32,000 nt of DNA, taken from NCBI GenBank assembly GCA_964570665.1, contig CAZMZH010000007.1:29319-61318 (forward strand). Reading direction: 5' to 3'. Positions within the stretch are counted from its first letter, which is position 1. Every line of letters starts with the position of its first letter. The notes under the pieces were generated by a model, which was not told the origin of the DNA, did no database searches, and saw nothing but the letters and a program-made list of their open reading frames with translations. Origin of the DNA: an uncultured Nitrospinota bacterium (lineage in GTDB: Bacteria > Nitrospinota > Nitrospinia > Nitrospinales > JAJDAT01). Both the position numbers and the translations under genes were made by a program. Below, one piece after another: positions 4,685 through 32,000 of the stretch.

Positions 4685-5383
4685 ATTTAGGAAAGTTGAT
4701 TAAAGCCCAAAATTATAGAAATACCTGGTGAGGCAAATTTTTATTTTATCTATTTCCCTTATCCTAGTCAAGCCAATTACTTTAATAAAATAAAGAGGTT
4801 AGAGACAAGCTTTTGAGGCTTTATAAATAAATATATAGTGGGGAATTAAAATATCTAAATTTAAGTATATGGGCGAAATTTATCCTGTATATCCAGAAAG
4901 CAGGTTTAAGCGATATGTGTATAAATATGAGCGGTAAAATTATCGAAAAGACAAACTTTTGCTGGGATAACCTTAAAATGTGCTAACCCTCGATAACGGC
5001 TAGTATCATCTCTGGAAACTATTCCACAAAGTTCTTTCCTTTTTAAATTCAAACTATTAATTAATTTGGAGAAATTTTTAATAAATAAAACTGGAAAGGC
5101 CTGGATAGTGATAATTATATTTCCATATATACTATAGAGGCAAAAAATTAATACTTAAGAGGGACAAAAAAGATTAAATTTTTCATATCAGAACCTTATT
5201 CAAGAAATTTTTCCAAATTTTAATAAATTTAATTTATTTTTCTGAAGAGGCTGATTGGATGACAGTATTATGATGTACGCGAAATGATACTTGATTAGGC
5301 CATTAGAGATCCATTACCTCCTCACACTTTTAGTCGCTTATTTCTTTTTTTAATTTAACAATCAAGACTAATACAAAACCAAA

Positions 5384-7099: not shown

Positions 7100-7280
7100 T
7101 AAATTAAAGATTTATTACCTATACTGTATTTCGATTTTTTATGGATACAGGATAACTAAAAACAAAATCAATAACCGTTTAAATTTCTTTTTCTATAAAA
7201 CTCTTGGAAGTTATAAAACGTCAAAAAACATTTTATTGATAATATCCTCATTATTCGATTTGAAATAAACCAAATTTTTT

Positions 7281-8981: not shown

Positions 8982-9056
8982 CTTATCCGATATTTTAATA
9001 TTTATGAATTAATCAAAGTTACTAAAGATTATTTATATTAGGTTTTAAAAGTCTGA

Positions 9057-9953
9057 TTATGGACGTGGGTGATATTTTTCATGTATTTCACGCAAGCGCG
9101 TTTGCATAACATGTGTATAAATTTGAGTCGTGGAAATATCAGAATGACCCAACATTTGCTGAACCGACCTTAAATCGGCTCCCCCTTCCAATAAATGAGT
9201 CGCAAAAGCATGGCGAAGTGTGTGTGGAGATACAGGTTTTTTGATACCCTCTATTAAGGTATATCTTTTTATAATTTTCCAAAAACCCTGACGAGTCATT
9301 GCTTTACCCCGCCGCGTTAAAAATAATTCTGAAACATTGCGTCCTTTTGTAAAACCGGGACGCGCTCTTAAAACATAATCTTCTACGGCATGCTTGGCAG
9401 CGTCTCCTATTGGAATCAGACGTTCTTTCGAACCCTTCCCAAAAGCTAAAACAAAGCCCATTTGCAAATTAACTTTAGAAGCTTCAAGGTTGATTAGTTC
9501 TGAAACCCGCACCCCAGCCGCGTACAAGATTTCCAACATAGCTTTATCCCGGAGTCCTTCTTGTGTTTTTAAGTCGGGCGCGTTTATTAACCGATCAACT
9601 TCTTCCAAACTCAATACATCAGGAAGTTTTTGTAAAAGCTTAGGCGTTTCTAGTAATTCGGCAGGATTTTTATCGGTGATTTTTTCTTGAATCAAGAATT
9701 CGAAAAACGACCTAATAGACGATTGTAATCTGGCAATTGACCTTGTAGACAGCCCACTCTGCCGAAGCTTTAATAAAAATTCTCTAATATTATTAACGGA
9801 AATATCTTCTAAACGATCGTTTTTAAATTCATTGGCGAATTTGTTCATATCTCTTCTATAAGCTTCCGTCGTGTTTAACGAGCGACGCTTTTCGATTGAA
9901 AGATAATCAACAAATTCTCTTATATAATGTTGCAATTCTATCCTCAGTTCCAA
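9057..9953 (-). CDS. xerD: site-specific tyrosine recombinase XerD/XerC family
   Basis: 298 aa. C-terminal catalytic region HTLRHAFATHLLEGGADLRSVQQMLGHSDISTTQIYTHV, with an N-terminal SAM-like core-binding domain. Confidence 0.85.
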   Translation of the reverse strand: MELRIELQHYIREFVDYLSIEKRRSLNTTEAYRRDMNKFANEFKNDRLEDISVNNIREFLLKLRQSGLSTRSIARLQSSIRSFFEFLIQEKITDKNPAELLETPKLLQKLPDVLSLEEVDRLINAPDLKTQEGLRDKAMLEILYAAGVRVSELINLEASKVNLQMGFVLAFGKGSKERLIPIGDAAKHAVEDYVLRARPGFTKGRNVSELFLTRRGKAMTRQGFWKIIKRYTLIEGIKKPVSPHTLRHAFATHLLEGGADLRSVQQMLGHSDISTTQIYTHVMQTRLREIHEKYHPRP

Positions 9954-10006: not shown

Positions 10007-10052
10007 CATCCTGGTCCTTCGGTAAACTCAGGATAAACTCTGTCCAAGGATC
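10007..10052. repeat. GC-rich hairpin mini-element (REP/MITE-like)
   Basis: catcctggtccttcggtaaactcaggataaactctgtccaaggatc. The arms atcctgg/ccaaggat pair. Same style as the elements at 17580, 17638, 24208 and inside the rhs-locus leader repeats. Confidence 0.5.
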
Positions 10053-10163
10053 ACACCTCGATTCAATAAATCTTTTCCTATATCTACTATATAATAATAG
10101 CAAAAACTCATTTATTATCAATTAGTTATATGCTATTAGATTTTTCATGAATTTAAAACCTAA

Positions 10164-17510: not shown

Positions 17511-17579
17511 AATACAGAACGGAAAACTTGTGGTGTGCTAAATAAAATAAGAACTGAGGCTGAGCAAACCCTATCGCTT

Positions 17580-17618
17580 GTCATTCTGACAAGCCGCTTT
17601 AGCGGTGAGGAAGAATCT
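17580..17618. repeat. GC-rich nested hairpin mini-element
   Basis: gtcATTCTgacaagCCGCtttaGCGGtgaggaAGAATct has nested inverted repeats. Sits in the 187-bp gap between two minus-strand genes. Confidence 0.55.
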
Positions 17619-17637
17619 CGCCCCGATTCAACTAATT

Positions 17638-19091: not shown

Positions 19092-20057
19092 TCAAAGAGA
19101 CACTCCTTGATTTTCGGCCGCATATGCTTGAAGGAAAAAAATCACCGTTTCATGTCCCTTTTTTAGAGCGTAATCTAAAGCGGTAAATCCCGCCTTTGTT
19201 TTGATATTTAAATTAGCCTCGTTAGTTATCAACCGCTTGACCGTTTTATCATGTCCATTAATAGCCGCAATATGCAATGGAGTGAAACCTTTATTTGTCT
19301 TTACGTTTACGTCAGAACCGTGTTCGACAAACCATTCGATCAAATCATAGTGTCCTCTTTCAGCGGCCATGTATATAGGAGTGTAACCGCCCTTGGCTTT
19401 CTGGTTTAGTCGAGCGCCCTTCCTCGCCAAAAGTTCAATGATTTCTTTATAACCATCTAAAGCGGCTAAATGCATTGGGGTGTAATTTCCATTGTTTTTT
19501 GAATTAACATCGGCTCCTTCTTCAATCAACTTTTCCGCTAACTTTATATGCCCTCCCTTAACTGCGTAATGCAAGGGCGTACCTATCTTATCGCTCACTG
19601 CATTTAACTCGCTACCTCTTTCAATTAGCACTTCAACAACTGAATTTTGCCCCAAACTTGCCGCCATGTGTAAAGGCGTAATCCCTTCAAGAGTTTTTGC
19701 GTTTAGATTGCAACCTTTATTAATCAGCAGCATTGCAATAGATTCTTGATCGTTATTTATTGCAATATGAAGAGGTGAAAATCCGCTTTTACTTTGCGTA
19801 TTAATGTCTGCGCCGTTTTCAATGAGTTTTTCGGCGACGCCTAAATGTCCGTTAAATGCCGCAAAATGCAAAGGAGTGAACCCCTCTTTGTTTACTTCGC
19901 TAATTTTCTCCCCTTGTGCGATCAATTGCCGAACTGGGTAAAAATCTCCAATTGTCGCCGCATCATGAAGAGGGCTAGCCCACGCAGATTTAACCATTGA
20001 GACAAAAATGCACGCAACCAGCGGGAAATAGATCCAAAATTTAAAAAACCTTGTCAT
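19092..20057 (-). CDS. secreted ankyrin-repeat protein
   Basis: Signal peptide (..SMVKSAWA/SP), then about 8-9 ANK units such as GFTPLHFAAFNGHLGVAEKLIENGADIN. Confidence 0.9.
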   Translation of the reverse strand: MTRFFKFWIYFPLVACIFVSMVKSAWASPLHDAATIGDFYPVRQLIAQGEKISEVNKEGFTPLHFAAFNGHLGVAEKLIENGADINTQSKSGFSPLHIAINNDQESIAMLLINKGCNLNAKTLEGITPLHMAASLGQNSVVEVLIERGSELNAVSDKIGTPLHYAVKGGHIKLAEKLIEEGADVNSKNNGNYTPMHLAALDGYKEIIELLARKGARLNQKAKGGYTPIYMAAERGHYDLIEWFVEHGSDVNVKTNKGFTPLHIAAINGHDKTVKRLITNEANLNIKTKAGFTALDYALKKGHETVIFFLQAYAAENQGVSL

Positions 20058-20213
20058 TACGGTTTCCTAAAAAATATCTGAATAGTTGTAAAAAAAATCA
20101 CTTTCACACGGGATCAATTCTACAATAATTTTAGACCGTATGGGATTGCTTTAATGATAGAAAGAGGAAGGAAATACTAATTTATATTAATAGCGCTAAT
20201 TCAAAAATTATTC

Positions 20214-20759
20214 TTACTTGTAAACGTTAAACGTTTTAGAAAATAACAATCTATTATCCTGAAATATAGTAATAGTATAAAGTCCAGGTTTATCTTTTGT
20301 TTCATGCTGAATAAAGAATTGTCCCGCTTTGAGTTTAACTGGAAAATCCCAAGGAAAAGTTTGTTTCTTCTCGATTGTGGCGTATTCCATTTTTAAAGGG
20401 ACAAAATCATTAGGGCCGCCATTCAAAGCGACCCAATACACTCCAAATTTTTTTCCAAAAGGTATTTCTACTTTTGGAATTACCCTAAATTCCCCACCCT
20501 TGTTAAGAATTAATGTATCGTCTTCATTTAATTTTTGTTCTTCTAAAGTCTTGGAGTTTTTAATGGTTTCGACCAAACCATAAGAAAAATGTAATTTAAT
20601 AATTTTCCCATTTGAAGTTCTAACCTCGCTAATGGATTCTGATTGAGTATAAGTTAAAGAACGCGAGGTTTTAGCTTTAATAATTGATTGAGAAAAAGCA
20701 AAAGGCAAAAGGATTAAAAAAGATAAAACCTGTATAAATACTATTAAATAGATCTTCAT
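20214..20759 (-). CDS. secreted hypothetical protein
   Basis: 181 aa with an N-terminal signal-like segment (LLPFAFSQS). No motif recognised. Confidence 0.5.
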   Translation of the reverse strand: MKIYLIVFIQVLSFLILLPFAFSQSIIKAKTSRSLTYTQSESISEVRTSNGKIIKLHFSYGLVETIKNSKTLEEQKLNEDDTLILNKGGEFRVIPKVEIPFGKKFGVYWVALNGGPNDFVPLKMEYATIEKKQTFPWDFPVKLKAGQFFIQHETKDKPGLYTITIFQDNRLLFSKTFNVYK

Positions 20760-20955
20760 ATATTTTAAATTTTTAAAGCAATAGATAAGGTTTAAAAAAT
20801 TATATCTTCACTAATTTATATCAGTACTTAATTATTAAATCCGACAATTCCGCCTGCTATAACCTATACACCCACGTTAATTAAGCAACCCAAATCCAAA
20901 CCAAAAACAGTTCCAATAATAATGGATGTAGAAGACATGGCTAATCCAAAACACT

Positions 20956-21312
20956 TTAAGACAATGCCCATTTTTCTTTGGCTAATTTAATGGCTTTTTC
21001 ATCATTATCGGAAAATTTCCATCCGTTTCTTATTAAACTCCTTCCGCTAATTTTATTTCCTTTAATGGATAAAAAAATATTCATAGAAATTTGGACTCCA
21101 TAACCGTAAAATTCTCCAAAATTAAGTTCAATTTCAGGAAACGAGGCGATAGCAAAAACCAAAAGAAAAAATCCAGCCTCAACAAATTGTCTTCTTACTA
21201 AAAAAACTAAAACCCCAAATATTAAAAATCTAATACTAAAACCAACGGTTAATTTTTTTTCTTTATTCTGAGTAGCGTTTTTTAGTTTAACAAAGGGATT
21301 ATTATCCTCCAT
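20956..21312 (-). CDS. small membrane protein, hypothetical
   Basis: 118 aa with two central hydrophobic helices. No motif recognised with confidence. Confidence 0.45.
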   Translation of the reverse strand: MEDNNPFVKLKNATQNKEKKLTVGFSIRFLIFGVLVFLVRRQFVEAGFFLLVFAIASFPEIELNFGEFYGYGVQISMNIFLSIKGNKISGRSLIRNGWKFSDNDEKAIKLAKEKWALS

Positions 21313-21370
21313 TGTTAGGAGTTTGCTGCCAAATTTGTAAATAATTAATACTTCTTTCTCTCATGGAAAA

Positions 21371-21700
21371 CTAAACTTGAAGATTTGCTTTAGGCGTCTT
21401 TGATTTTTGGGAAGAGTTAAATAACTTAATATCTTTGAGATCTCCACCCTTTTCTTCGGCAACTTCTAAGTCGTATTTCTGTTGTAGATTCAACCAGATT
21501 TCTGGACCTGTTCCAAAAAACTTTCCTAATCGTCTAGCGGTATCTGCAGTAATATCTCTTTGCCCATTCAAGATTTGATAAATTCGGTTACTAGGCACAT
21601 TTAGAGCTTTAGCAAATTGATTGCCATTCATTTCAATTTCTTCCAGCTCTTCTGCCAATATTTCTCCGGGATGTATAGGAACTCTCCAATCATTCGCCAT
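21371..21700 (-). CDS. higA: HigA-family antitoxin (XRE HTH), pair 1
   Basis: IHPGEILAEELEE...NRIYQILNGQRDITADTARRLGKFFGTGPEIWLNLQQKYDL matches the HigA/VapI pattern. Lies 11 nt downstream of higB. Confidence 0.9.
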   Translation of the reverse strand: MANDWRVPIHPGEILAEELEEIEMNGNQFAKALNVPSNRIYQILNGQRDITADTARRLGKFFGTGPEIWLNLQQKYDLEVAEEKGGDLKDIKLFNSSQKSKTPKANLQV

Positions 21701-21711
21701 GTTTTTATCCT

Positions 21712-21990
21712 TTAATGATAGTCGACAATTTCCACATCAAGAGCATAGCCATCTTCCCATTTAAAACAAATACGCCACTGATCGTTTATCCTGATACTAT
21801 ACTGGTCTTTTCGATCTCCTTTTAACGCTTCAAATCGATTTCCTGGTATAGCGACCAAAGCCCCCAAAGTTGGGGCGGTCTCCAAAACACGAAGTCGCGT
21901 TAGCGCTTTTCGTGCAATGGGTTTAAATTTTTTTACAAATTCACGGCCATAAAGCTTTTCCGTGTTTTTACATTTAAAACTCTTAATCAT
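21712..21990 (-). CDS. higB: HigB-type (RelE/ParE superfamily) toxin, pair 1
   Basis: 92 aa, MIKSFKCK...RFEALKGDRKDQYSIRINDQWRICFKWEDG...VEIVDYH. Toxin-first gene order is typical of higBA. Confidence 0.9.
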   Translation of the reverse strand: MIKSFKCKNTEKLYGREFVKKFKPIARKALTRLRVLETAPTLGALVAIPGNRFEALKGDRKDQYSIRINDQWRICFKWEDGYALDVEIVDYH

Positions 21991-22006
21991 TCAGCTTTGG
22001 AAACAG

Positions 22007-22027
22007 GATTAACGTACTACGTCAATC
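22007..22027. promoter_or_regulatory. 10-1-10 palindrome, candidate HigA operator upstream of higB-1
   Basis: gattaacgta c tacgtcaatc has one mismatch between arms. It lies 17-37 nt upstream of the higB-1 ATG (21990). Confidence 0.45.
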
Positions 22028-22091
22028 GTAGCAAAAAATAGTTTATCAATCAATTTTCAATTGCTATTTATTCAAGTAAAACAACTGCAAC

Positions 22092-22385
22092 GGGCTCTGT
22101 AGCAGTATAACCCGCTTTCGTCCAACTCGCCTCCGGTCTAATGCAATCGATTGCCGTTTTCATTGCCGGTTTCGGTAATCAATTCGCCAAAAGGACCTAC
22201 TGCATCGTCGCTTGCGCGCTGCCTAACGATTCCACCAGGGACGTGACCGATCGTAAATGGTCGTGATGATAGGTCGCGGCGGTTTCGTTCCCGCTAGAAT
22301 TATAATGCAACCCATGCACCACCTCGTCCACCACCACGCCGCGAAAGTATTGATCCTCCAATTGAAATGTCTGGTAGTAAACGAA
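22092..22385 (-). pseudogene. Rhs core remnant (about 290 bp, frameshifted)
   Basis: Aligns by eye with 23350-23650 and 30400-30700 (..QTFQLEDQYFRGVVVDEVVHGLHY..HDHLRSVTSLVESLGSAQATMQ..). A 1-nt deletion turns TACGGT into TAGGT, giving a stop. It ends at the YYYRA-coding stub. Confidence 0.85.
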
Positions 22386-22426
22386 GTAAAAAATAATATC
22401 TCCATTTAAAAATCAAAATGCACAAA

Positions 22427-22455
22427 TTGACAAACGTCATTTGACATTTTACAAT
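22427..22455 (+). promoter_or_regulatory. sigma70-type promoter of higBA-2, probably giving a leaderless mRNA
   Basis: TTGACA (22427-22432), 17 nt, TACAAT (22450-22455). The higB-2 ATG at 22462 is only 6 nt after the -10 box, with no Shine-Dalgarno. Confidence 0.55.
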
Positions 22456-22461
22456 TAGAAA

Positions 22462-22740
22462 ATGATTAAAAGTTTCAAGCATCGTGGATTGAAAAAGTTT
22501 TTTGAGGATGGTGATTCTCGAAAAATACCACACGATATGTTAGATCGAATACGTTTAATTCTCGCTCGTCTAAATACTGCCCGAAACCTTGAAGCTATGA
22601 ATATTCATTCCTATCATTTGCATGAACTCAAAGGGAATCGCAAAGGAACTTGGAGCGTTACTGCTCGGGCTAATTGGCGGATTACTTTCCGATTTGAAAA
22701 TGGGGACGCTTTTGATTTAAATTTTGAAGATTATCATTAG
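22462..22740 (+). CDS. higB: HigB-type toxin, pair 2
   Basis: 92 aa, MIKSFKHRGLKKFFEDG...HLHELKGNRKGTWSVTARANWRITFRFENGDAFDLNFEDYH. Distinct sequence from pair 1. Confidence 0.9.
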   Translation: MIKSFKHRGLKKFFEDGDSRKIPHDMLDRIRLILARLNTARNLEAMNIHSYHLHELKGNRKGTWSVTARANWRITFRFENGDAFDLNFEDYH

Positions 22741-22752
22741 AAGGAAAAAAAC

Positions 22753-23073
22753 ATGGCCATTAAAAAATATCAAATGAAAAATCCACCTCACCCTGGATTA
22801 GGCGTGAAAGTTGATTGTTTAGAACCTTATGGATTGAGTATTACTAAAGGCGCAAAAATATTAGGTGTTACGAGACAAACCTTAAGCCTTCTGGTCAATC
22901 AAAAAACATCCTTATCGTGGGACATGGCAATCCGGCTTTCGAAGGCCTTTGGATCAACCCCAGAAGGATGGATGGAATTACAATTTCAATATGATTCCGC
23001 ACAAGCCGTTAAACGCGCAAAAAAAATAAAGGTGACCCCCTATCAGGGATCACTAGAACCCGCTTATCAATAA
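22753..23073 (+). CDS. higA: HigA-family antitoxin (HTH), pair 2
   Basis: PHPGLGVKVDCLEPYGLSITKGAKILGVTRQTLSLLVNQKTSLSWDMAIRLSKAFGSTPEGWMELQFQYD. Confidence 0.85.
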   Translation: MAIKKYQMKNPPHPGLGVKVDCLEPYGLSITKGAKILGVTRQTLSLLVNQKTSLSWDMAIRLSKAFGSTPEGWMELQFQYDSAQAVKRAKKIKVTPYQGSLEPAYQ

Positions 23074-23074
23074 T

Positions 23075-23210
23075 GGATCTTCCGTTAAGAACCTTCCGAC
23101 CTCCGGATCGTAATAGTGTGCTCGGTAGTAATATACTGAGGCCCATTCAAGTCCAAAGCTTAAAAAACTGTCCGCCTGAGGCTCTCGAAGGCCGAGCGGC
23201 GGAATACGTT
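23075..23210 (-). repeat. rhs-locus leader repeat copy R1 (truncated) with a 63-bp rhs core stub
   Basis: 23075-23137 encodes YYYRAHYYDPEVGRFLTEDP on the minus strand. 23138-23210 matches 25398-25466 of copy R2, including the hairpin ctgtc.gcctgaggctctcgaaggccgagcg. Confidence 0.8.
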
Positions 23211-24207
23211 ATTCCAAAATGATGAATTAGCGAAAGGAGCCCGCTAGGATCACTAGCATTTATTGGATTATTTTCTACATAAGCATAGAAATTAATTCCA
23301 GCACGGAAACCCATGGAATCTTCCGTTAAGAACCTTCCGACTTCCGGATCGTAATAGCGGGCTCGGTAGTAGTATAACCCGGAATCGTCCAACTCGCGTC
23401 CGGTGTAATGCAATCGGTTGCCGTTGTCGCTGCCGGTTTCCGTTATCAATTCGCCAAAAGGACCGTACTGCATCGTCGCCTGTGCGCTGCCTAACGTTTC
23501 CACCAGGGACGTGACCGACCGTAAATGGTCATGGTGATAAGTTGTCCCGCTTTCGTTCCCGCTAGAATCGTAATGCAACCCATGCACCACCTCGTCTACC
23601 ACCACGCCGCGAAAATATTGATCCTGCAATTGAAATGTCTCGTCATAAATCGCTTCTAAATGCTCCCCTTCTAAATAATAGTTCCGCGTATTAAACCCTC
23701 CATCATTATTCTTGATGCGGTAATCGCTCGGATCGTATTTAAAATAAAACGATTTACCCGGAGTCGACATTCCCGTCACTCGGTTTTTTTGATCGTAAAC
23801 AAAACTCTGTAGAGTCGTGTCGTCGACATTTCGCTTGGTTAATCGATTGCCGTTAGAATCGTACTCGTATTTGGCGACCAAAGGACCCATAACGCTGCCC
23901 TGGCGCACTTCCATTAACTGATTATTGACGTTATAAACGTAAACATGAACGACGCCGTCTTTCGTATGAGTCAATCGATTTCCCACCTTATCGTACGTAT
24001 AAGCATGATCGTTTGCGGTATTTGGCGCTTCCACTCCGATCAAACGATTGAGACTATCGTAGGTATAAAATGTGGTTCCTTCCCCTCCCTGGGGTCCAAC
24101 AGAAACGGTTGTGATATTTCCCACTTTGTCGTAAGTGTACAACGTACGGCTTATTTCCGTTCCTCCTAAACCTTCGTTGACCAAAGACGTCAACCGATTA
24201 TCGGCGT

Positions 24208-24243
24208 CGCACCTCTTGAGCTTGCCCTGAGCTAGCCGAAGGG
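24208..24243. repeat. GC-rich hairpin mini-element inserted in the rhs body
   Basis: cctcttgagcttgccctgagctagccgaaggg is translated as PSASSGQAQE in the upstream ORF. The flanking Rhs-like sequence (..RILSND / DADNRLTSL..) continues in a different frame. Confidence 0.65.
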
Positions 24244-24681
24244 TCGTTTGACAAGATACGATTCACCAATCGTCCCGCTTCGTCGTAGAAATAAGAAACC
24301 TGAACGTGATCCGAATTACTCTGCGCGATCAACCGATTGGCGGAGTTGTATTGATAATTCGTCGTCTTTCCCTGATAATCGGTTTTGGTAGCGACGTTGC
24401 CAACTTTATCGTAAGTCCAACTGAGAGTTTTGTTGGTTGTGGCGCCATTGTGATCGAGCCGTTCGTCGTTTTTACTAATCAAACGATTCTGCTGGTCGTA
24501 GGTGAACGAATAGATGATGCCGCCATTAGCAACCTGTTGCAAATTGCCAAAACTATCGTAAGTGCGCAGTTCCTGTTTGCCGTCATTATAAAAATCGGTA
24601 AATATCAACCGATTCAAGGTGTCGTACGCAAAGAAAAAGTTGTGACTGTAACTATAATAACAGTTATCTAGTCTGAAATAC

Positions 24682-24709
24682 TTGACCCCAAAGCTGTGTT
24701 TGGTAAAAT
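24682..24709 (+). promoter_or_regulatory. candidate sigma70 promoter flanked by CTAGTCT/AGACTAG inverted repeats
   Basis: TTGACC (24682-24687), 16 nt, TAAAAT (24704-24709). ctagtct at 24668-24674 and tagtct-t-agactag at 24715-24728 bracket it. Confidence 0.3.
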
Positions 24710-24715
24710 AAATAT

Positions 24716-24851
24716 AGTCTTAGACTAGTGTCCTGCGGTAGGTGGGTTAAAGGTCGTAGCTTTGGCAACGCCCCGCCCAAAGTAGGGAACTGGGGGTCGG
24801 TTTTCTCTTTACTGCTTCGGCAGTCGCTTGAAAGCTATCCCCCATTTTTTT
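24716..24851 (+). ncRNA. candidate roughly 135-nt structured small RNA, convergent with the 124-aa ORF
   Basis: Lies between the candidate promoter and a terminator-like structure. Contains a perfect ACTGC-TTCG-GCAGT hairpin (24811-24824). No convincing ORF. Purely structural inference. Confidence 0.2.
24791..24851 (+). terminator. terminator-like structure (TGGGGG...CCCCCA stem enclosing a UUCG hairpin, then T7)
   Basis: tggggg (24791-24796) pairs with ccccca (24839-24844), followed by ttttttt (24845-24851). The T-run overlaps the stop codon of the convergent ORF 24850..25224. Confidence 0.35.
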
Positions 24852-25224
24852 AGAACGTCGAAATCAAAAACAATTTTTTATCCTTCCCCTCTTTTTGCTC
24901 GCGTATGTGGATGGTAACGACTATTCCTTTTGACGTGATCCCTTTAAACTCGTTGGAAATACCCATCTGATCCCGTTTTTGATCAGTTAAATCCTTTTTT
25001 CTAACTTTCGCAATTAACTCTAATCCAACAAAGAAGCGACGTTTCCTTCGAGTTCGGTCATTACGGTCATTTGTGATTGCAAGATATCTATCTAAAAAGA
25101 CAGTTCTCTTTTTTCCTAACCCGTTAAAATTAATCCGACCTTCGATTTGTTCAATTTTTTGGTTTATCAGATCGTCCAGCGATTTTCCTTTTTGCGTTGC
25201 AATTTCCGTTTTCAACTTAAGCAT
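24850..25224 (-). CDS. basic 124-aa hypothetical protein in a cassette slot of the rhs array
   Basis: Open frame directly downstream of leader copy R2. Lys/Arg-rich (..NDRNDRTRRKRRFFVGLE..; ..VVTIHIREQKEGKDKKLFLISTF). No family recognised. Confidence 0.5.
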   Translation of the reverse strand: MLKLKTEIATQKGKSLDDLINQKIEQIEGRINFNGLGKKRTVFLDRYLAITNDRNDRTRRKRRFFVGLELIAKVRKKDLTDQKRDQMGISNEFKGITSKGIVVTIHIREQKEGKDKKLFLISTF

Positions 25225-25364
25225 GGAGCGAATTGTACAGCGAAATTAACGCAAACAAAAGCATCCTTTCTCTCTTTTGATTATGACAACAAGCAAGAAT
25301 TAAATTAGTAAACCCAGGCTCACCATGAGAGCGCTGATAGAAGAGAAATAATATGACTGATTTC

Positions 25365-25590
25365 GGAATCGTAATAGCGGGCTCGGTAGTAATATACAGA
25401 GGCTCATTCAACTCCAGAGCTTAAAAAACTGTCAGCCTGAGGCTCTCGAAGGCCGAGCGCCATACGTTAAAATAAAACGACTCCAAAACTTCCAATCAGT
25501 TACAAACCAATTTTCCCAATAAAATTAATTAGCTGTCATCCTTGAGTGAAGCGAAGGATCTACCCCAATGCGGTTTTAGAATTAATTTTC
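25365..25590 (-). repeat. rhs-locus leader repeat copy R2
   Basis: Core stub 25365-25397 (YYYRARYYD-coding). Hairpin elements at 25431-25459 and 25535-25560. Conserved blocks ccaatcagttacaaaccaattttcccaataaaa and ccccaatgcggttttagaattaattttc are shared with R3-R5. Confidence 0.85.
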
Positions 25591-25717
25591 TTATTAATCC
25601 AAAAGTAGTTTTAGCTTAATTTTAAAATGAAATGAAGATGAAAGTTTGTACCTATACATCCTATTTCCTTAATGTTTCCTTCTTGCTGACCTGATAAAGG
25701 AAGAGTATAATTTCCTC

Positions 25718-25987
25718 ATGGCTACTATTACAATCAAATTGGACATTGACAAAAAAGAACAAGGTTGTCTTTTCGAAGTCGACGAAAATGCAGAGCGACA
25801 AATAGAAAAAGAACGTCAACGTTCTGGCAAGGATCGCGATGCAATTATTCTTGACATAGCCCAACGAACACTCTCTCTAATGGAATTCAATGCTATTCGG
25901 GAAGAGTTAGCTCCCTATGCTGAAAAAGCAAATTTGAGCGAAGAAGAAATACTCGCTCTGCCAAGAATGTCTTCAAAAAATAGCTAA
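25718..25987 (+). CDS. putative antitoxin partner of a PIN toxin (VapB-like, possibly RHH)
   Basis: 89 aa. N-terminus MATITIKLDIDKKE resembles an RHH beta-strand start. Lies 12 nt upstream of a PIN gene. Confidence 0.55.
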   Translation: MATITIKLDIDKKEQGCLFEVDENAERQIEKERQRSGKDRDAIILDIAQRTLSLMEFNAIREELAPYAEKANLSEEEILALPRMSSKNS

Positions 25988-25999
25988 CCGATAAAGTAC

Positions 26000-26410
26000 G
26001 TGAGAGTTTTTTTTGACACGAACGTATTGGTGAGCGCTTTTACTAGCGGGGGAATATGCCTTAATCTAGTAAAAAGAACAATTGAAGACACGCAACACAA
26101 CCTGCTCGTAGGCACAGTTATTATTGACGAGCTAAGTCGGATTTTGACTCACCGGTTTAACTACCCTCCCCAAAAATTAGATCGCGTAATAGCCTTCCTA
26201 ATTAAATATAGGGCAATACTTATGCCCAAAACAAAGCCTCCCGTTTCTGTCCGCGATCCCGATGACGAACTGGTGCTCGCCTCTGCGCTGGAAACAGGAG
26301 CAGACATTCTAGTTACAGGAGACAAAGATCTACTAATACTGGGCGACACAGCGGGAATTAAAATAGTAGACCCACGCATGCTTTGGGAGATGTTGACAAA
26401 GGAAGATTAG
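26000..26410 (+). CDS. vapC: PIN-domain toxin (VapC-like, TIGR00305-type)
   Basis: GTG start. MRVFFDTNVLVSAF..., ...DPDDELVLASALETGADILVTGDKDLL gives the acidic PIN residues in the expected order. Confidence 0.85.
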   Translation: MRVFFDTNVLVSAFTSGGICLNLVKRTIEDTQHNLLVGTVIIDELSRILTHRFNYPPQKLDRVIAFLIKYRAILMPKTKPPVSVRDPDDELVLASALETGADILVTGDKDLLILGDTAGIKIVDPRMLWEMLTKED

Positions 26411-26437
26411 CGCATCCGGATTCCTAATCGTCAAATC

Positions 26438-26682
26438 AGGCTCTGTAGTAGTATACGGAAGCTCATTCCATAAGGCAGCCCCGCTTCCGGGCTCTAAAAA
26501 AATGTCACTCTGAGCCTGTCGAAGGCCGAGCGTCGGACGTTAAAATTAAATTACCTCTCTCCCGCCCCAGCCTGTCCTGAGCGAAGCCGAAGGATCTAGA
26601 CCAATTTTTCCAATAAAATTCATTAGCTGTCATCCTTGAGTGAAGCGAAGGATCTACCTTAATGCGGGTTTTGGCTTAATTC
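26438..26682 (-). repeat. rhs-locus leader repeat copy R3 (longest, three hairpin elements)
   Basis: Degenerate core stub aggctctgtagtagtatacgg. Hairpin elements at 26504-26532, 26573-26597 and 26629-26655. Shared blocks as in R2. Confidence 0.8.
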
Positions 26683-26806
26683 TTATTGATTTCAATCGTA
26701 CTATATACGCTATAACATTCAGTACAAAATCCTAACTTGATTGTTTATTTACGAATATTCCCGTAAAATAATTCTATTAAGCTTTTTTGTTACCGGAGAT
26801 TAGGGA

Positions 26807-27052
26807 ATGCCAATTAAAATCCTAGAGCATGTCAAAGCCCAGGAACTTCCAAAATCCTGGAAAAAGGAACTAAATCCCAGCCCCGAGGAAACGTTTCGAA
26901 TTACTATTGAACCCGAAAGCGAGCTGACTGACGAGCCGTTTGACGTAACCCATGATCCTATCTTTCAATTAGAAGGATATGACTCAGATGCGCCTTCTGA
27001 CTTATCTAAAATTTCAGATAAGTTACTTTATGGAAAAAACCATCCTGCATAA
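26807..27052 (+). CDS. putative VapB-like antitoxin
   Basis: 81 aa. Its stop overlaps the PIN gene start (TAATG). The acidic C-terminus ..DPIFQLEGYDSDAPSDLSKISDKLLYG resembles tails I recall from PIN-associated antitoxins. Confidence 0.55.
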   Translation: MPIKILEHVKAQELPKSWKKELNPSPEETFRITIEPESELTDEPFDVTHDPIFQLEGYDSDAPSDLSKISDKLLYGKNHPA

Positions 27053-27459
27053 TGGAAACGGTTTTCCTGGATGCAAATGGGTGGATCGCCCTTTCAAATA
27101 AAAGGGATCAATTAAACGCTAAAGCGGTTAATCGTAATAAAGAACTCCTTCAAAATCAGACTCGCTACCTAACAACCAATTTCGTTCTAGACGAAACCTA
27201 TACCACACTCATGGCAAAGGTAGGAAACTTTGCGGCTGTGGACTTCGGCGAAAGAGTCAGAAACTCAAAATCCGTCACGATTGTTCACATCTCTCCAGAA
27301 ATCGAAGAAGAAGCTTGGCAACTTTTCAAAAAATACTCCGACAAACAATTTTCTTTTACAGACTGCACTTCATTTGTTGTGATGCAAAGATTTAAATTGG
27401 AAAAAGCATTCACAAACGACCATCATTTTGAACAAGCAGGATTTTCAATTCTGTTATAA
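27052..27459 (+). CDS. vapC: PIN-domain toxin (VapC)
   Basis: METVFLDANGWIAL..., ..NFVLDETYT.., ..FSFTDCTSFVVM.., ..FTNDHHF follow the PIN acidic residue pattern. Confidence 0.85.
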   Translation: METVFLDANGWIALSNKRDQLNAKAVNRNKELLQNQTRYLTTNFVLDETYTTLMAKVGNFAAVDFGERVRNSKSVTIVHISPEIEEEAWQLFKKYSDKQFSFTDCTSFVVMQRFKLEKAFTNDHHFEQAGFSILL

Positions 27460-27534
27460 TCAAATTTTATAAACCAAATCCGTTTGCGAGAGAAACCTCA
27501 AAACTCCTTTTACAAAAAAACACTTAATCTAAGT

Positions 27535-27700
27535 GGGCTCGGTAGTAATATACGGAGGCAGAAGAACGCCGTACACTAAAATTAAACTTCTCCATTGCCT
27601 CCAATCAGTTACAACTTAATTTTCCCAATAAAACTCAATACCTGTCATCCTCGAACGAAGTGAAGGATCTACCCCAATGCGGTTTTGAAATTAATTTTCC
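27535..27700 (-). repeat. rhs-locus leader repeat copy R4
   Basis: Core stub gggctcggtagtaatatacgg. Lacks the first hairpin insertion. Hairpin element at 27644-27670. Shared terminal block ccccaatgcggttttgaaattaattttcc. Confidence 0.85.
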
Positions 27701-27775
27701 TTCTGGTTCAGAAGAAGTCTATGAGTAAAATTTTATAATTAAAGAAATGAAAAATATTTCTGGAAAAGATTAATT

Positions 27776-28090
27776 TTAGTTGTCTGGAAGGTTATATTCT
27801 TTTTTAGCATATTCAAAAGAAACTACTGATAAACGAAATGGCCCCAGCCCATGCATTGCACTATGGGGATATGTGTATTCCCAATATCGCCCCTTAAACC
27901 ATTCTCTATATAAAATATGAAAACCACCAGGTGCATCAGCAATCTTTTTCAGGAAAAATAGTCTAAAAAATTCTAATCTTCTTACGTTTTCACTCACTAT
28001 TCTTCCATTTATGACTTCCCAATCTTGATCAAGCTTGGTTTCACCTTTTGTTATTTTAAAAAAAATCTTTAAATATAAGTTTTTTAACAT
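27776..28090 (-). CDS. putative immunity protein for the decayed Rhs tip CT2
   Basis: 104 aa. Starts 21 nt after the CT2 stop. The segment GRYWEYTYPHSAMHGLGPFRL resembles, from memory, the W-E-x-x-Y-P-x-S-x-x-H-G-G-G-P signature of a small polymorphic-toxin immunity family (Imm27-type). Confidence 0.6.
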   Translation of the reverse strand: MLKNLYLKIFFKITKGETKLDQDWEVINGRIVSENVRRLEFFRLFFLKKIADAPGGFHILYREWFKGRYWEYTYPHSAMHGLGPFRLSVVSFEYAKKEYNLPDN

Positions 28091-28111
28091 GTCAAAAAGT
28101 TTAAAGAGAAA

Positions 28112-28884
28112 TCACTTTGAATAAACTTGTTGCATCATATTATTATTTGGCTTGTTTGGGTAGATTACAAAACCACCTTGTGCAGGTTCGCCCTGACTTA
28201 CCGCATTAATACCAAACCCAATTCCCGAAGCTCTATCTGAGACAATTCGGCCAGTTGCATCACTTGGAATAGAACCATTTGGAACAACGAACTCTCGTGC
28301 TCCACCCTGAGTAAATCCTCCATCTATAAACCCTGGTTCAGTACGATTTCTTGGAATATCAAGTTTAGAAAAGTTGCTTGAAGAAAATTCAAAAAGATGA
28401 AAAGATCCAGGATTCTCAATTATTAGTCGTTCAGCAATTTATTGAGCACTATTCAATCCCTCTAATGCTCCTGCGTCAGCAACAAAAGCATCTGGTCTCG
28501 TTTTTAAATTTAAAAGAAAATCTGGATTGAGGTCTTTAGAAGGAATTGTACGAACTAGATTTTCAGGTATACCGCTCCTTGTAAAAGTGGACGTACAGCT
28601 TGCCCACCGCCAGTAACAAAAGGAATTAATGCACCGCCAACGTCTAAAAGCAATGCAACTCCGTTTGTTAAAGTTAACCCCTCTTCGGCTATAAAAGCGA
28701 GATCGGCAACAATAAATCCTATATCCAATAATGTGTCTGCAAAGTTTCCTGTAGGATCATTTGCGTTAATTGGGTTATTGTGGACATATGCATAAAAATT
28801 AACTCCGGCCTTAAATCCTACAGGATCCTCAGTTAAGAACCTTCCGACTTCGGGATCGTAATAGCGGGCTCGGTAGTAATATAC
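28112..28884 (-). pseudogene. orphan Rhs C-terminal tip CT2 (core stub, PT-TG-like pre-toxin region, unknown toxin domain), disrupted
   Basis: Manual translation gives SVYYYRARYYDPEVGRFLTEDPVGFKAGVNFYAYVHNNPINANDPTGNF-ADTLLDIGFIVADL..LLLDVGGALIPFVTGGGQAVR.. There is then a frameshift near 28560-28610 and an in-frame TAA at 28439-28441. It ends ..GGFTQGGAREFVVPNGSIP..GGFVIYPNKPNNNMMQQVYSK. No start codon; an in-frame TGA lies just upstream. Confidence 0.8.
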
Positions 28885-29014
28885 GGAGGCAGAAGAGCGT
28901 CATACGCTAAAATCGAATTTAGCCAATGCATCCAACCAGTTACAAACAAATTTTTTCAAAAAAAACACCAATCTAAAATTTTGACCCCAATGCGGTTTTA
29001 AAATTAATTTTCCC
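28885..29014 (-). repeat. rhs-locus leader repeat copy R5 (no hairpin insertions)
   Basis: ggaggcagaagagcgtcatacgctaaaat...ccaaccagttacaaacaaatttttt...ccccaatgcggttttaaaattaattttccc is collinear with R4 and R2 minus their hairpin elements. Confidence 0.8.
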
Positions 29015-29075
29015 ACTTAAACAGAAACGATTTTGGTTTATTTTTTCGATTAAAAAAAGAAGGGAGTAAGTATTT

Positions 29076-29615
29076 TTAAGAACTAGAACTTTTTAGCGAA
29101 GAATTTTCTTTAGAAGTTTCTAATTTACTCTCTTTTAGTATTGAAGCAATTTTAGAATAATCAGAACCTATTTTTTTTCCAGCCCAATCAGAATAAACAT
29201 ATTTTAACTTATTATTATTTTCTGAAATAATTATCGAAATTGAATGATCAACTAGAAATTTTTTTTCATATAAGACATCAATGATCTTATTTCTTTCAAT
29301 TAACATTAAATAAGTCAATGAAGTTACTCCAAACAACACATACTTGCTAGTAATCGCTATTCCAAAATGACCAAGAATTAGGGGATCAATATCTTTTCTA
29401 ATTTTTTTACCATTTGATTCACTATATATCTTGAGGACACCTCGACGAACTCGGAAGATCACTTTGTCTTCAAGGTTTTTAATTAATTTATGCCCCAGTA
29501 AAATTCGGGTAATTCCAATAAAACCATAATCTAAGAATACTATCAGAACAATTAATGGAAATATTGCTTCGAGCCAAAAATCCCAACTCACAATCATTTC
29601 TTTTAGGTAGCTCAT
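29076..29615 (-). CDS. membrane protein, putative immunity protein for Rhs tip CT1
   Basis: 179 aa with an N-terminal TM helix (AIFPLIVLIVFLDYGFIGI) and a central hydrophobic segment. Lies 83 nt downstream of the toxin stop on the same strand. Confidence 0.6.
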   Translation of the reverse strand: MSYLKEMIVSWDFWLEAIFPLIVLIVFLDYGFIGITRILLGHKLIKNLEDKVIFRVRRGVLKIYSESNGKKIRKDIDPLILGHFGIAITSKYVLFGVTSLTYLMLIERNKIIDVLYEKKFLVDHSISIIISENNNKLKYVYSDWAGKKIGSDYSKIASILKESKLETSKENSSLKSSSS

Positions 29616-29698
29616 TTAAAAAACTAAAGTCTCAAAAAAATTAGATATTATTGAATAAATTACTGTACTAAAACTTTTTATCTCGAAAATACTTTTTC

Positions 29699-30844
29699 CT
29701 ATTTACTATACACTTGTTGCATAAAATTATTATTGGGTTTATTAGGATAGATCACAAATCCCCCTCCAGCGCCACCGGAATTAGATTGAGCGTTTCCAGT
29801 AAAAAAATTGGAAATACTATTGAATAAATTCTTTGCTCCATCAACAAAATCTCCAATAGCGTTGCTTCGAAAAGCCGATTCAGTATTCGTTATTGTAGGA
29901 CCTACTTCAGGAGTATTAATTCCAAAAGGAGAAAGACCAAACTCGAAAAATGCTTGAACATTATCTTTGGTGCTGGTGGTTGGAAATGTTGCCCCAAATG
30001 TAAAACTTCGCTTTTGAGTAATGGGAAATGATCCGCTAATAGACCTTGATCTACCCTCAAGGTTATCTAGCGTAGTATTTTCATTGCCAAATAAAAAGTT
30101 AACAAACAATCCACCACTCTCGCTTTGTCCTGAAAGGACTCCCCCTTCTTCATGTTGGGTAAAAATACCAAACTCCAATGTTTCCGTATCGATGGCAACA
30201 ATAGTACTTACAGAACCTTTTGCCCCAACTCCTTCGGGAGCAAAACCACCACCGCCTCCAAAATTGAAACCAACAGGCCTTTTCCCAGCTGGATCGTTAA
30301 AACTGATTGGGTTATTATTTACATAAGCATAAAAATTTGGTCCGGCTTCGAAACCTAAAGGGTCTTCAGTGAGGAAGCGGCCAACCTCAGGATCGTAATA
30401 GCGGGCTCGGTAGTAGTATAACCCGCTTTCGTCCAACTCGCGTCCGGTGTAATGCAATCGATTGCCGTTGTCGCTGCCGGTTTCCGTTATCAATTCGCCA
30501 AAAGGACCGTATTGCATCGTCGCCTGTGCGCTTCCTAACGATTCCACCAGGGACGTGACCGACCGCAAATGATCGTGATGATAGCTCGCCCCTGTTTCAT
30601 TACCGCTAGAATCGTAATGGAGCCCGTGCACCACCTCGTCCACCACCACGCCGCGAAAATATTGATCCTGCAATTGAAATGTCTGGTCGTAAATCGCTTC
30701 TAAATGCTCCCCTTCTAAATAATAGTTCCGCGTATTTAATCCTCCATCATTATTCCTGATCCTGTAATCGCTCGGATCGTATTTAAAATAAAACGATTTA
30801 CCCGGAGTCGACATTCCCGTCACTCGATTTTTTTTATTTTCCAT
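29699..30844 (-). CDS. Rhs fragment: last about 187 aa of the RHS core plus a 194-aa Gly/Ser/Thr/Phe-rich C-terminal domain (CT1) of unknown function
   Basis: Core part is collinear and nearly identical to 23330-23790 (..GLYYYRARYYDPEVGRFLTEDPLGFEAGPNFYAYVNNNPISFNDPAG). CT1 spans 29702-30283. The ATG at 30844 coincides with the point where rhs homology begins, so this is an N-terminally truncated module. Confidence 0.8.
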   Translation of the reverse strand: MENKKNRVTGMSTPGKSFYFKYDPSDYRIRNNDGGLNTRNYYLEGEHLEAIYDQTFQLQDQYFRGVVVDEVVHGLHYDSSGNETGASYHHDHLRSVTSLVESLGSAQATMQYGPFGELITETGSDNGNRLHYTGRELDESGLYYYRARYYDPEVGRFLTEDPLGFEAGPNFYAYVNNNPISFNDPAGKRPVGFNFGGGGGFAPEGVGAKGSVSTIVAIDTETLEFGIFTQHEEGGVLSGQSESGGLFVNFLFGNENTTLDNLEGRSRSISGSFPITQKRSFTFGATFPTTSTKDNVQAFFEFGLSPFGINTPEVGPTITNTESAFRSNAIGDFVDGAKNLFNSISNFFTGNAQSNSGGAGGGFVIYPNKPNNNFMQQVYSK

Positions 30845-30962
30845 TATTAATCACAAAAAGGCTTGATACTACTAAATGTTTCAATTTGAGAAAAGGAAGG
30901 AAATAAGTTAAAATCTGGAGCTTTTATTCCGTACTTTTTGAAAGGTTTTAAGGTTTCCTAAT

Positions 30963-31958
30963 ATGTCTGGAATCACTTTAGTTCAACATATCCGCGCGCA
31001 GGAACAGAAATCCCCTGGGGCTACCGGAGAATTCTCAGGTTTAATGAACGATGTACTGGTCGCGGCAAAACTAGTTTCGCGCGAAGTCAATCGCGCTGGT
31101 ATCGCCGAAGATATTATTGGATTGACGGGCGAAGTGAACGTGCAAGGCGAGGAAGTTCAAAAACTCGATCACTATGCGAATGAAACCTTTATTAAAGTGC
31201 TTTCTCAATCTGGCAAAGTTTGCGCTATAGGCTCTGAAGAAAACGAAAACGCAGTTATAGTCCCTAAAGACCAACAAACCAGCGGTAAATACATATTTAT
31301 GATGGACCCACTGGACGGCTCTTCAAATATCGACGTGAACGTAGGAATTGGGACCATTTTTGCCATTTATGAAAAGAAAAGTTCTGGCGATACGGTTACC
31401 GATGAAGACTTATTACAAAAAGCCGATCAACAAGTTGGAGCTGGTTACGTTCTCTATGGTTCCAGCACAATGTTTGTCTATACCACAGGTAACGGAGTTC
31501 ATGGTTTTACGCTCGATCCCGCTATCGGAGAATTTTATCTTTCTCACCCAGATTTAAAAATTCCCTCAAAAGGTTCCATTTATAGCGCCAATGAGGGAAG
31601 CGTATCCTTCTGGAACGACAAACAAAAAGCTCTTGTCCAATACTATAAAGAAACGGATAAAGAAACCGGCAGGCCTTATAAATTACGCTATATCGGAACT
31701 CTGGTGTCGGATTTTCACCGAACTCTTCTTAAAGGCGGTATTTTTATGTATCCTGGGGACAGTAAAAGTCCCAATGGGAAACTAAGGTTTGCGTTTGAAG
31801 CCGCTCCCTTAGCTTTTATTGTCGAGCAAGCCGGCGGCAAAGCGAGCGATGGGAAGTCCAATATTTTTACTCAATCGCCCACTGAACTTCACCAAAGAAT
31901 TCCACTTTTTATCGGCAGTAAGGAAGATGTTGAGTTAGCCGAAAAAAAATTGCAGTGA
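30963..31958 (+). CDS. fbp: fructose-1,6-bisphosphatase class 1
   Basis: 331 aa with DPLDGSSNIDVNVGIGTIFAIY and GKLRFAFEAAPLAFIVEQAGGKASDG motifs. Confidence 0.95.
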   Translation: MSGITLVQHIRAQEQKSPGATGEFSGLMNDVLVAAKLVSREVNRAGIAEDIIGLTGEVNVQGEEVQKLDHYANETFIKVLSQSGKVCAIGSEENENAVIVPKDQQTSGKYIFMMDPLDGSSNIDVNVGIGTIFAIYEKKSSGDTVTDEDLLQKADQQVGAGYVLYGSSTMFVYTTGNGVHGFTLDPAIGEFYLSHPDLKIPSKGSIYSANEGSVSFWNDKQKALVQYYKETDKETGRPYKLRYIGTLVSDFHRTLLKGGIFMYPGDSKSPNGKLRFAFEAAPLAFIVEQAGGKASDGKSNIFTQSPTELHQRIPLFIGSKEDVELAEKKLQ

Positions 31959-32000
31959 TTTGACGAGAACTCTGAAATCTTTTGAATACTAAAAAAATAA

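Follow-up and report, generated by a model that had tools for sequence, protein, structure and literature searches.

Type II toxin-antitoxin operons in repeat-bounded slots of an rhs orphan-type array from an uncultured Nitrospinota bacterium

Rhs and other polymorphic-toxin arrays are usually seen as stores of spare weapons and shields, and type II toxin-antitoxin (TA) operons as a separate selfish or defensive class. What is to be made of a locus that mixes both classes in one repeat-bounded array, and does so across genomes about 18% apart in a housekeeping gene? The locus occupies positions 30844-21371, read on the minus strand, of a 32,000-nucleotide (nt) stretch of DNA from an uncultured marine Nitrospinota bacterium (contig CAZMZH010000007.1 of assembly GCA_964570665.1, positions 29,319 to 61,318). 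This stretch is the window, and coordinates are window positions unless another sequence is named. Families were assigned from Pfam and NCBIfam profiles and defence candidates from PADLOC. Two further genomes enter the comparison: a metagenome-assembled genome (MAG) labelled Nitrospinales (L006, JAYOZP010000006.1), whose array is syntenic with that of the window and whose fbp gene, at the edge of the array, is 82% identical in nt and 90% in amino acids (aa) to the window copy; and a third genome (L008), with fbp 81% nt identical. The original prediction had read the locus as an rhs orphan-type array of repeat-bounded modules, and open reading frames (ORFs), family assignments and stub copies bear this out. 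The array comprises a core remnant, two Rhs pieces that lack their 5' ends, and a non-coding leader in five copies, each joined to a stub of rhs core sequence; four slots are occupied by complete type II TA operons. In reading order, with repetitive extragenic palindromic elements abbreviated REP and C-terminal toxin tips CT, its features are:

29699-30844, minus strand: Rhs orphan unit 1, 381 aa; the last ~190 aa of the Rhs core (KNRVTGMS...NDPAG), then CT1
29076-29615, minus strand: putative membrane immunity protein for CT1, 179 aa, directly downstream of CT1; no family match
28885-29072, minus strand: leader copy 1, no REP-like inserts; 5' anchor AAAACCGCATTGGGGT at 28984-28999
28752-28884, minus strand: full-length core stub of 132 nt (VYYYRARYYDP...NDPTG), heading orphan CT2 and complete to DPxG
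28112-28751, minus strand: CT2, an Ntox10-family toxin pseudogene; frameshift near 28560, in-frame stop near 28440
27776-28090, minus strand: Imm27 immunity gene, 104 aa (PF15590, E = 1.4e-6, above cut-off)
27554-27759, minus strand: leader copy 2, one REP-like hairpin insert
27535-27553, minus strand: stub of 18 nt (VYYYRAH), bounding the vapBC-2 slot
26807-27459, plus strand: vapBC-2; 81-aa antitoxin candidate (26807-27052) and 135-aa PIN toxin (27052-27459)
26457-26760, minus strand: leader copy 3, three REP-like inserts
26416-26456, minus strand: degenerate stub (VYYYRA*FDD), ~17 nt of it clearly core-homologous; vapBC-1 slot
25718-26410, plus strand: vapBC-1; 89-aa antitoxin candidate (25718-25987) and 136-aa PIN_3 toxin (26000-26410, GTG start)
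25398-25650, minus strand: leader copy 4, two REP-like inserts
25368-25397, minus strand: stub of 29 nt (VYYYRARYYDSE); ORF124 slot
24850-25224, minus strand: ORF124, a basic 124-aa protein (isoelectric point 10.3) of a small uncharacterised family
23147-24617, minus strand: Rhs body 2, 5'-truncated, recognised by RHS_repeat matches and comparison with L006
23137-23215, minus strand: leader copy 5, 3' half only, 91% identical to 25363-25459
23074-23136, minus strand: stub of ~60 nt (59 nt; VYYYRAHYYDPEVGRFLTEDP), abutting the higA-2 stop codon
22462-23073, plus strand: higBA-2; HigB 92 aa, HigA 106 aa
22091-22381, minus strand: Rhs core remnant (TFQLEDQ...LYCYRAR) with two stops and a frameshift
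21371-21990, minus strand: higBA-1; HigB 92 aa (21712-21990), HigA 109 aa (21371-21700)

All four TA operons are intact, and CT2, Rhs body 2 and the remnant are disrupted. Both hig operons have the toxin-first order and match PF05015 (E = 1e-15 for higBA-1, 3e-18 for higBA-2) and TIGR02607 (E = 2e-26 and 4e-24), the two HigA proteins scoring 91 and 84 bits against a TIGR02607 cut-off of 47.7. VapC-1 matches PF13470 (E = 7e-15) and TIGR00305 (E = 9e-13), and VapC-2 matches PF01850 (E = 4e-11). The vapB-2 and vapC-2 genes overlap in ATGA; the small ORFs upstream of the two PIN toxins match no antitoxin family. In each of these slots the operon and its promoter take up the space between the stub and the next leader or core piece, with no remains of a tip or an immunity gene: 0-75 nt lie between the stub and the gene 3' end, and 47-125 nt between the promoter side and the next leader or core piece. 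In three of the four cases the operon is directed towards the stub, on the strand opposite to the rhs pieces. The joins fall where the original prediction had placed them. The higA-2 stop codon (23071-23073) is immediately next to the proline codon of LTEDP (23074-23076); from the vapC-1 stop (26410) to its degenerate stub the distance is ~5 nt, and from the vapC-2 stop (27459) to its own stub ~75 nt. The broader claim, that complete type II TA operons fill equivalent slots in mixed orientation, is upheld by families and junctions, with the two vapBC loci identified through their PIN toxins and paired with candidate antitoxins. A strong sigma-70-like promoter precedes higBA-2 (22427-22455, 11 of 12 positions matched); it is the only convincing one in a scan of the region in which promoter and terminator totals did not exceed those of shuffled sequence.

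The repeat that bounds the slots proves larger than the stub of rhs core first proposed. The stub motif itself is confirmed: GTATATTACTACCGAGC and its near variants occur seven times in the window, all on the minus strand between 23120 and 30421, where 0.04 are expected by chance, and the core motif YYYRARYYDP...DPxG is readable in three long pieces and five stubs. Each of the five stubs, however, follows a non-coding leader of ~150-250 nt, which runs from a 5' anchor AAAATTAATTYYAAAACCGCATTGGGGT through a conserved middle and zero to three short REP-like hairpin inserts to a 3' end GCCTCNGTA, joined to TATTACTACCGAGC at exactly one base position. This junction, GCCTCNGTATATTACTACCGAGC, is exact in four window copies and two L006 copies. 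The stubs read GTA TAT TAC and the resident cores TTA TAC TAC; because this difference holds in both window and L006 (synonymous divergence, dS, of ~1.2 at fbp), leader and stub have been inherited as a single unit, which differs from the resident cores and already existed before the two genomes diverged. Leaders are 70-90% identical within a genome and 67-84% between genomes, and they also trail ordinary immunity genes (the membrane immunity gene, Imm27 and, in L004, directly after a gene of the barstar family). The stubs all lack an in-frame start codon and come after a stop codon or non-coding sequence, so that orphans of this type are silent in their present form. Three leaders contain a weak promoter-like match directed towards the stub (ATGACA-18 nt-GAAAAT/AAAAAT with a TG extension, 9 of 12 positions; 25510-25539, 26604-26633 and 27619-27648, minus strand), formed in part by the REP-like hairpin insert.

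Is this unit simply a dispersed mobile repeat, of the REP type or of the miniature inverted-repeat transposable element (MITE) type, that inserted between TA and rhs genes already in place? Its short REP-like hairpin inserts do occur elsewhere (blocks in L005, a related contig, match window 10027-10079 and 17569-17621), one REP-like insert breaks Rhs body 2, and the leader 5' anchor is also found after a TA operon outside any rhs array, in L005. Yet within the window only the array contains the leader anchor, the junction and two types of hairpin (positions 1-21000 have no copy), and no terminal inverted repeats or target duplications were seen at leader and stub, while the 3' end of the unit varies. 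A genome-wide scan for exact matches to the junction, covering a 185,579-species collection, found it only in the syntenic array of L006, twice. An exact-pattern scan of metagenomes with the leader anchor returned three contigs; the collection evidently lacks the source contig (three exact matches), which makes this weak evidence of absence, and for that reason the statement that the leader is not dispersed draws mostly on the related MAG and the window. With exact matches to the junction confined to the array and its L006 counterpart, the generic dispersed element that the original prediction had named as its own refutation did not emerge, and we consider an origin of this kind highly improbable.

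The fixed leader/stub boundary, the same repeat at the bounds of the cassettes, and the clustering of payload junctions in one ~60-nt stretch of the core could also be taken as marks of a site-specific, integron-like cassette system, with host XerC/D or some other recombinase acting on a leader/stub site, and a XerD gene is present at 9057-9953. That gene is nonetheless the only tyrosine recombinase, it lies 11 kb from the array, and it scores 380.8 bits as XerD (cut-off 329.6) against 138 bits as integron integrase (cut-off 265). No recombinase gene lies in or beside the array in the window or in L006, and the leaders fold as DNA no better than shuffled sequences (z between +0.4 and -1.3, in a folding test that used no dedicated attC model). 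Payload-side junctions vary from 17 to 132 nt, and gene orientation is mixed. A site-specific system is therefore very unlikely in our estimation. The suggested resemblance to an integron-style array without intI or attC holds for the missing parts, as there is no intI and no attC-like hairpin; the likeness itself is pictorial only, given the variable junctions and mixed orientation. The absence of a full-length rhs or secretion gene, noted for the window, extends with that of intI to the 10 kb beyond fbp.

Does the arrangement recur? The original prediction had proposed comparing the cassettes of related genomes, and L006 does differ from the window in what its equivalent slots contain. Read away from fbp, its array consists of:

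First, a 5'-truncated Rhs piece with a nucleotidyltransferase-like tip, unlike the window tips
Second, two candidate defence genes at L006 3348-5030, minus strand: PDC-S10 metallophosphatase (E = 4e-12) and PDC-S50 Schlafen/AlbA_2 (E = 6e-82)
Third and fourth, a leader and stub, then higBA-2 in reverse with an identical stub/higA junction (86% nt identity over 727 nt)
Fifth and sixth, a core remnant, then a UPF0175 and DUF3368-like TA operon
Seventh and eighth, a leader and stub, then parDE in reverse

The block of leader, stub, higBA-2 and remnant is common to the two genomes at 86% nt identity. The slot after the remnant holds higBA-1 in the window and the UPF0175/DUF3368-like operon, followed by leader, stub and parDE, in L006; between fbp and body 2 the window carries ~6 kb more cassettes than L006. 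The L006 slot between the Rhs tip and the next leader contains candidate phage-defence genes rather than an obvious immunity gene. At the other end of the array, the junction between fbp and the 381-aa fragment is collinear in L008, where the CT1 homologue is 64% aa identical over the protein and the membrane immunity gene at the same position 32%.

These junctions bear also on the assembly. There are repeats of 80-90% identity, and leaders are where short contigs end (L004, L008), as would be expected if the array were an artefact of collapsed or chimeric rhs repeats in a metagenome contig. The same gene order is, however, found in several records (contigs of 145.9 kb, 146.8 kb and 209.9 kb, the latter two sizes from NCBI, GEM and ENA), the fbp/Rhs junction recurs in L008 and the stub/higA-2 junction in L006, at ~80-86% identity and thus independently assembled. 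Corroborated by these records and by conserved junctions in two other genomes, the assembly is sound enough that an artefact can very nearly be set aside.

The UPF0175 cassette of L006 has moved between contexts, because a 91% nt identical copy is found in L005, in a stretch that includes 40 nt upstream and ~110 nt downstream to the leader anchor, in a setting of parDE-like genes, IS110, pyrG, kdsB and other repeats with no rhs stub. That part of L005 (4700-8077) is itself a cluster of TA operons, one UPF0175-type with a frameshifted toxin and one ParE-type, separated by composite repeats of ~170-300 nt; the repeats are of a different family without rhs, and the cluster adjoins the IS110 transposase, pyrG and kdsB.

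Nei-Gojobori estimates of dS and of the ratio of nonsynonymous to synonymous divergence (dN/dS), made between window and L006, show how these pieces have been maintained:

fbp: dN/dS 0.05, dS 1.2
higB-2: dN/dS 0.07, dS 0.70
higA-2: dN/dS 0.06, dS 0.75
Rhs core C-terminal module (window fragment 1 and body 2 against the L006 fragment): dN/dS 0.06, dS 1.1-1.2
remnant against remnant: dN/dS 0.07, dS 1.4

By these ratios higBA-2 is functional, long retained and under strong purifying selection. The Rhs core modules, truncated ones included, give dN/dS of 0.05-0.09 between genomes (0.06-0.09 for the core of fragment 1); during most of their past the Rhs pieces, too, have thus been under selection as proteins, whether because they are in use or because gene conversion from a functional rhs at another site renews them. 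As a separate observation, dS is clearly lower in higBA-2 (0.70-0.75; window 22462-23073 against L006 2330-2940) than in fbp and the Rhs core (1.1-1.2), which might go back to an exchange of the block between lineages at a later time, or to no more than codon constraints.

A plainer explanation has to be weighed against these values, namely that the locus is a decaying rhs island and accessory-gene hotspot in which TA operons landed independently, with leaders and stubs playing no role. Random illegitimate joins predict stub/payload junctions as uneven as the 17, 18, 29 and 59 nt seen here; three of the rhs-derived pieces (CT2, Rhs body 2 and the remnant) have become pseudogenes; the family of VapC-2 is promiscuous and has been transferred widely (hundreds of homologues at 60-72% identity in many phyla, none near-identical); the L005 operons cluster among other repeats without rhs; and defence-like genes are found within the L006 array as well. 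Coincidence sits less easily with the fact that the starts of all six non-rhs payloads in the two genomes fall within, or shortly after, the first ~60 nt of a core end, that no slot keeps remains of its tip or immunity gene, and that the arrangement has persisted over a dS of ~1. Nor is the locus a graveyard and nothing more, given the purifying selection on the core modules and on the orphan nearest to fbp. We regard this explanation as possible but not likely. The same dN/dS values for the core (0.05-0.09), together with the conservation of the 381-aa fragment and its immunity gene in L008, make the suggestion of a reservoir rather than a weapon too simple.

We lean, with moderate confidence, towards an old and partly decayed rhs orphan array of the C-terminal-displacement kind, in which leader and stub provide portable homology and TA operons have replaced tip/immunity pairs in some of the slots. 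Once formed, the leader/stub junction would be copied by ordinary homologous recombination with each newly inserted module. A donor consisting of core, tip, immunity gene, leader and stub would insert by one crossover in core or leader and another in the downstream stub or leader or in the core end, leaving the same direct repeat at the bounds of every slot. Rare, one-off illegitimate joins inside the stub would then have put a self-contained type II TA operon in the place of a whole tip/immunity pair, and joins of such origin would differ in position, as the stub/TA joins here do. Blocks of leader, short stub, TA operon and leader could from then on be exchanged, gained and lost as cassettes through double crossovers in the leaders. 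The operons themselves may be selfish passengers kept by addiction, loss of the antitoxin gene being lethal, and as a side effect they would penalise deletions between direct repeats and so shield neighbouring cassettes. That they stabilise the array against deletion is, by analogy with integron arrays, probable; that tip-swapping recombination moves them is plausible.

Several points weigh against this account. No recombination event has been observed, the arrangement is found in two genomes of one lineage only, and gene order is identical in other records of the window contig. The higBA-2 block looks vertically inherited and not mobilised, and recent exchange or gene conversion among leaders is not evident, because leader identity within a genome is not clearly above that between genomes. 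No TA operon is recognisable by Pfam in the slots of same-Rhs-family arrays from seven other lineages (L009-L017). These genomes have no known full-length rhs that could supply new tips, and the stabilising effect is an argument from analogy. A more ambitious proposal, that leader and stub form a dedicated, integrase-free capture device in which the most conserved ~60 nt of the rhs core plus the leader act as a homology-based attachment site for any toxin/antidote module, seems to us decidedly unlikely. If it were true, tips, type II TA operons and defence modules would be captured, shuffled and exchanged between genomes, and the rhs machinery for swapping tips would carry addiction and defence modules in general, as a functional counterpart of the integron driven by recombination.

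How far does an array of displaced tips and captured TA operons depart from systems already known? Rhs orphan arrays reportedly arise by C-terminal displacement. The present array is like them in that core fragments or stubs precede diverse alternative tips (CT1, Ntox10 and the nucleotidyltransferase-like tip of L006) with immunity genes downstream, and in that the variable tips appear to have cognate immunity genes (CT1 and its membrane protein, kept as a pair in L008, and Ntox10 with Imm27). It differs in that no full-length rhs heads the array in the window or the 10 kb beyond fbp, in that its slots are bounded by a common non-coding leader, which joins the stub at one fixed position, and in that four slots (three more in L006) hold complete type II TA operons. 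In distant lineages, arrays built from this Rhs family have the classical form, with a full-length Rhs (Transglut_core/DUF6531) followed by orphans, as in the distant relative L009, or with runs of orphans of ~370-390 aa. The Transglut_core plus DUF6531 N-termini of relatives come after a 449-aa and a ~220-aa gene.

Chromosomal integrons offer a second comparison, since TA cassettes are said to stabilise their arrays against deletion. Here too type II TA operons are scattered through an array of cassettes bounded by direct repeats, and deletions that remove an antitoxin gene would likely be lethal. Unlike chromosomal (super)integrons, this locus has no intI, attI or attC; its repeat is a leader with an rhs stub, orientation is mixed and the junctions vary.

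In type VI secretion system (T6SS) effector/immunity arrays of Vibrio cholerae, new modules insert before old ones, and homology-facilitated illegitimate recombination has been proposed together with an explicit integron analogy that needs no integrase (Kirchberger et al. 2017, PMC5361080). The recombination and displacement routes are the same as those invoked here, but those arrays keep immunity genes only, without TA operons, and no conserved leader repeat is described for them. In Salmonella, a truncated Rhs-CT can be expressed internally together with its immunity gene and behave in a TA-like manner (Starsta et al. 2020, PMC7043789). By analogy, the conserved 381-aa fragment and its immunity gene might have a TA-type function, which would give the island a common logic; unlike the Salmonella orphans, the Rhs-derived pairs here are interleaved with canonical HigBA and VapBC. 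The classic orphan paper (Poole et al. 2011, PMC3150448) contains neither the word antitoxin nor the word addiction. Searches of the full-text literature found no description of canonical TA operons in rhs orphan slots, in agreement with the original prediction that the arrangement had not been described; the components are all known, and the arrangement appears to be new, documented in one lineage (two genomes plus supporting fragments). It suggests that the homology used in swapping toxin tips can also carry unrelated addiction or defence modules, that TA operons may keep repeat-rich arrays from collapsing, and that intracellular TA operons and exported toxin/immunity pairs may share one genomic niche interchangeably, which fits PMC7043789. 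It remains a single-lineage observation with an inferred mechanism.

The Rhs pieces deserve description in their own right. The 381-aa fragment, which starts at KNRVTGMS, 118 nt from fbp, matches Rhs_assc_core (TIGR03696, E = 2.8e-25, above cut-off); its tip CT1, of ~190 aa, matches no known family and ends in the tail GGFVIYPNKPNNNFMQQVYSK. The same C-terminal tail closes CT2, whose reconstituted frame matches PF15520 Ntox10 (E = 8.3e-29). CT2 had been predicted to be a decayed tip preceded by a PT-TG domain. The decay is confirmed, while Pfam reports no PT-TG domain at E<=0.1. With the Imm27 gene downstream, CT2 makes up an Ntox10/Imm27 pair, in which the toxin member is a pseudogene. Rhs body 2 is tipless, with 11 codons after DPSGL and then leader sequence, and it is disrupted at ~24200-24250 by a REP-like insertion of ~30 nt and a frameshift; the remnant at 22091-22381 is closed by the core end LYCYRAR.

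Orphans of ~360-390 aa in other lineages (L011-L015, P0068-P0118) start near the same core position, before YDPSDYRI...YLEGEHLEA. Such units follow one another in runs, some of them inverted duplicates (L014), and often with no full-length rhs within 10 kb. Because orphan units share this start position across lineages, the final stretch of the Rhs core, ~190 aa long, resembles a standard module that is portable.

A tail of ~21 aa, GGF(V/L)(I/L)YPNKPNTNMMQSVYSK, is common to very different Rhs tips (CT1, Ntox10, the nucleotidyltransferase-like tip and others), just before the immunity gene. It is found at window 29702-29765 and 28116-28178, L006 5137-5200 and L008 2341-2405, and in P0002-P0118; it is present in 43 of the 120 best Rhs-core homologues, from many phyla, and in the full-length, 2371-aa Rhs of L009. 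No Pfam model covers this tail, and a full-text motif search of the literature returned nothing; it could be a delivery or processing tag. Within Rhs coding sequence there is also the REP-like element CCTTCGRCWRGCTCAGGRCARGCTCAAGA of ~30 nt, read as 'S/PS(T/A)(G/S)SGQAQ', with sites at window ~24205-24250 and 26560-26600 and at L006 ~6250-6290 and ~2130-2170. Both L006 copies, one in the fragment and one in the remnant, keep the reading frame (RNSPSTGSGQAQDGTRN). In the window, the copy in body 2 accompanies the frameshift, and another lies within leader 3.

One slot holds neither an Rhs tip nor a TA operon. ORF124 is a real gene of a real family: its 43 remote homologues, of ~120-130 aa, share invariant R60, H106 and E109 (motif VHIREE...KDKKLFLISTF), and its AlphaFold2 model has a mean predicted local distance difference test score of 97.3. 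It has no match in Pfam, NCBIfam, PADLOC or PDB sequences, and no significant Foldseek match in the PDB. Because it occupies an orphan slot, it is a candidate and may be a new toxin or defence protein. Of the seven toxin/antidote modules first proposed, six are demonstrable as pairs, and nothing shows a toxin or an antidote in the seventh, that of ORF124. The protein is as basic as had been claimed. The structured non-coding tail described after it folds only marginally better than shuffled sequence (z = -1.9) and has no Rfam match; across 20000-32000 an Rfam scan at E<=1 gave only a chance snoZ40 match, and a scan for tRNA and tmRNA gave nothing.

The genes around the array are ordinary chromosomal ones, and the interval that contains it runs from fbp to a 118-aa membrane-protein gene (20956-21312). 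One flank carries fabD, fabH, plsX, yceD, two Sel1-repeat genes, XerD, a sugar ABC transporter and an ankyrin protein, and the other carries fbp, hisS, fur and acs. The two Sel1-repeat genes are paralogues (571 and 566 aa) within window 5000-9000, AT-rich (GC fraction 0.25-0.32, against ~0.38-0.43 around them) and immediately adjoined by the housekeeping-type XerD gene; this stretch may be another acquired island.

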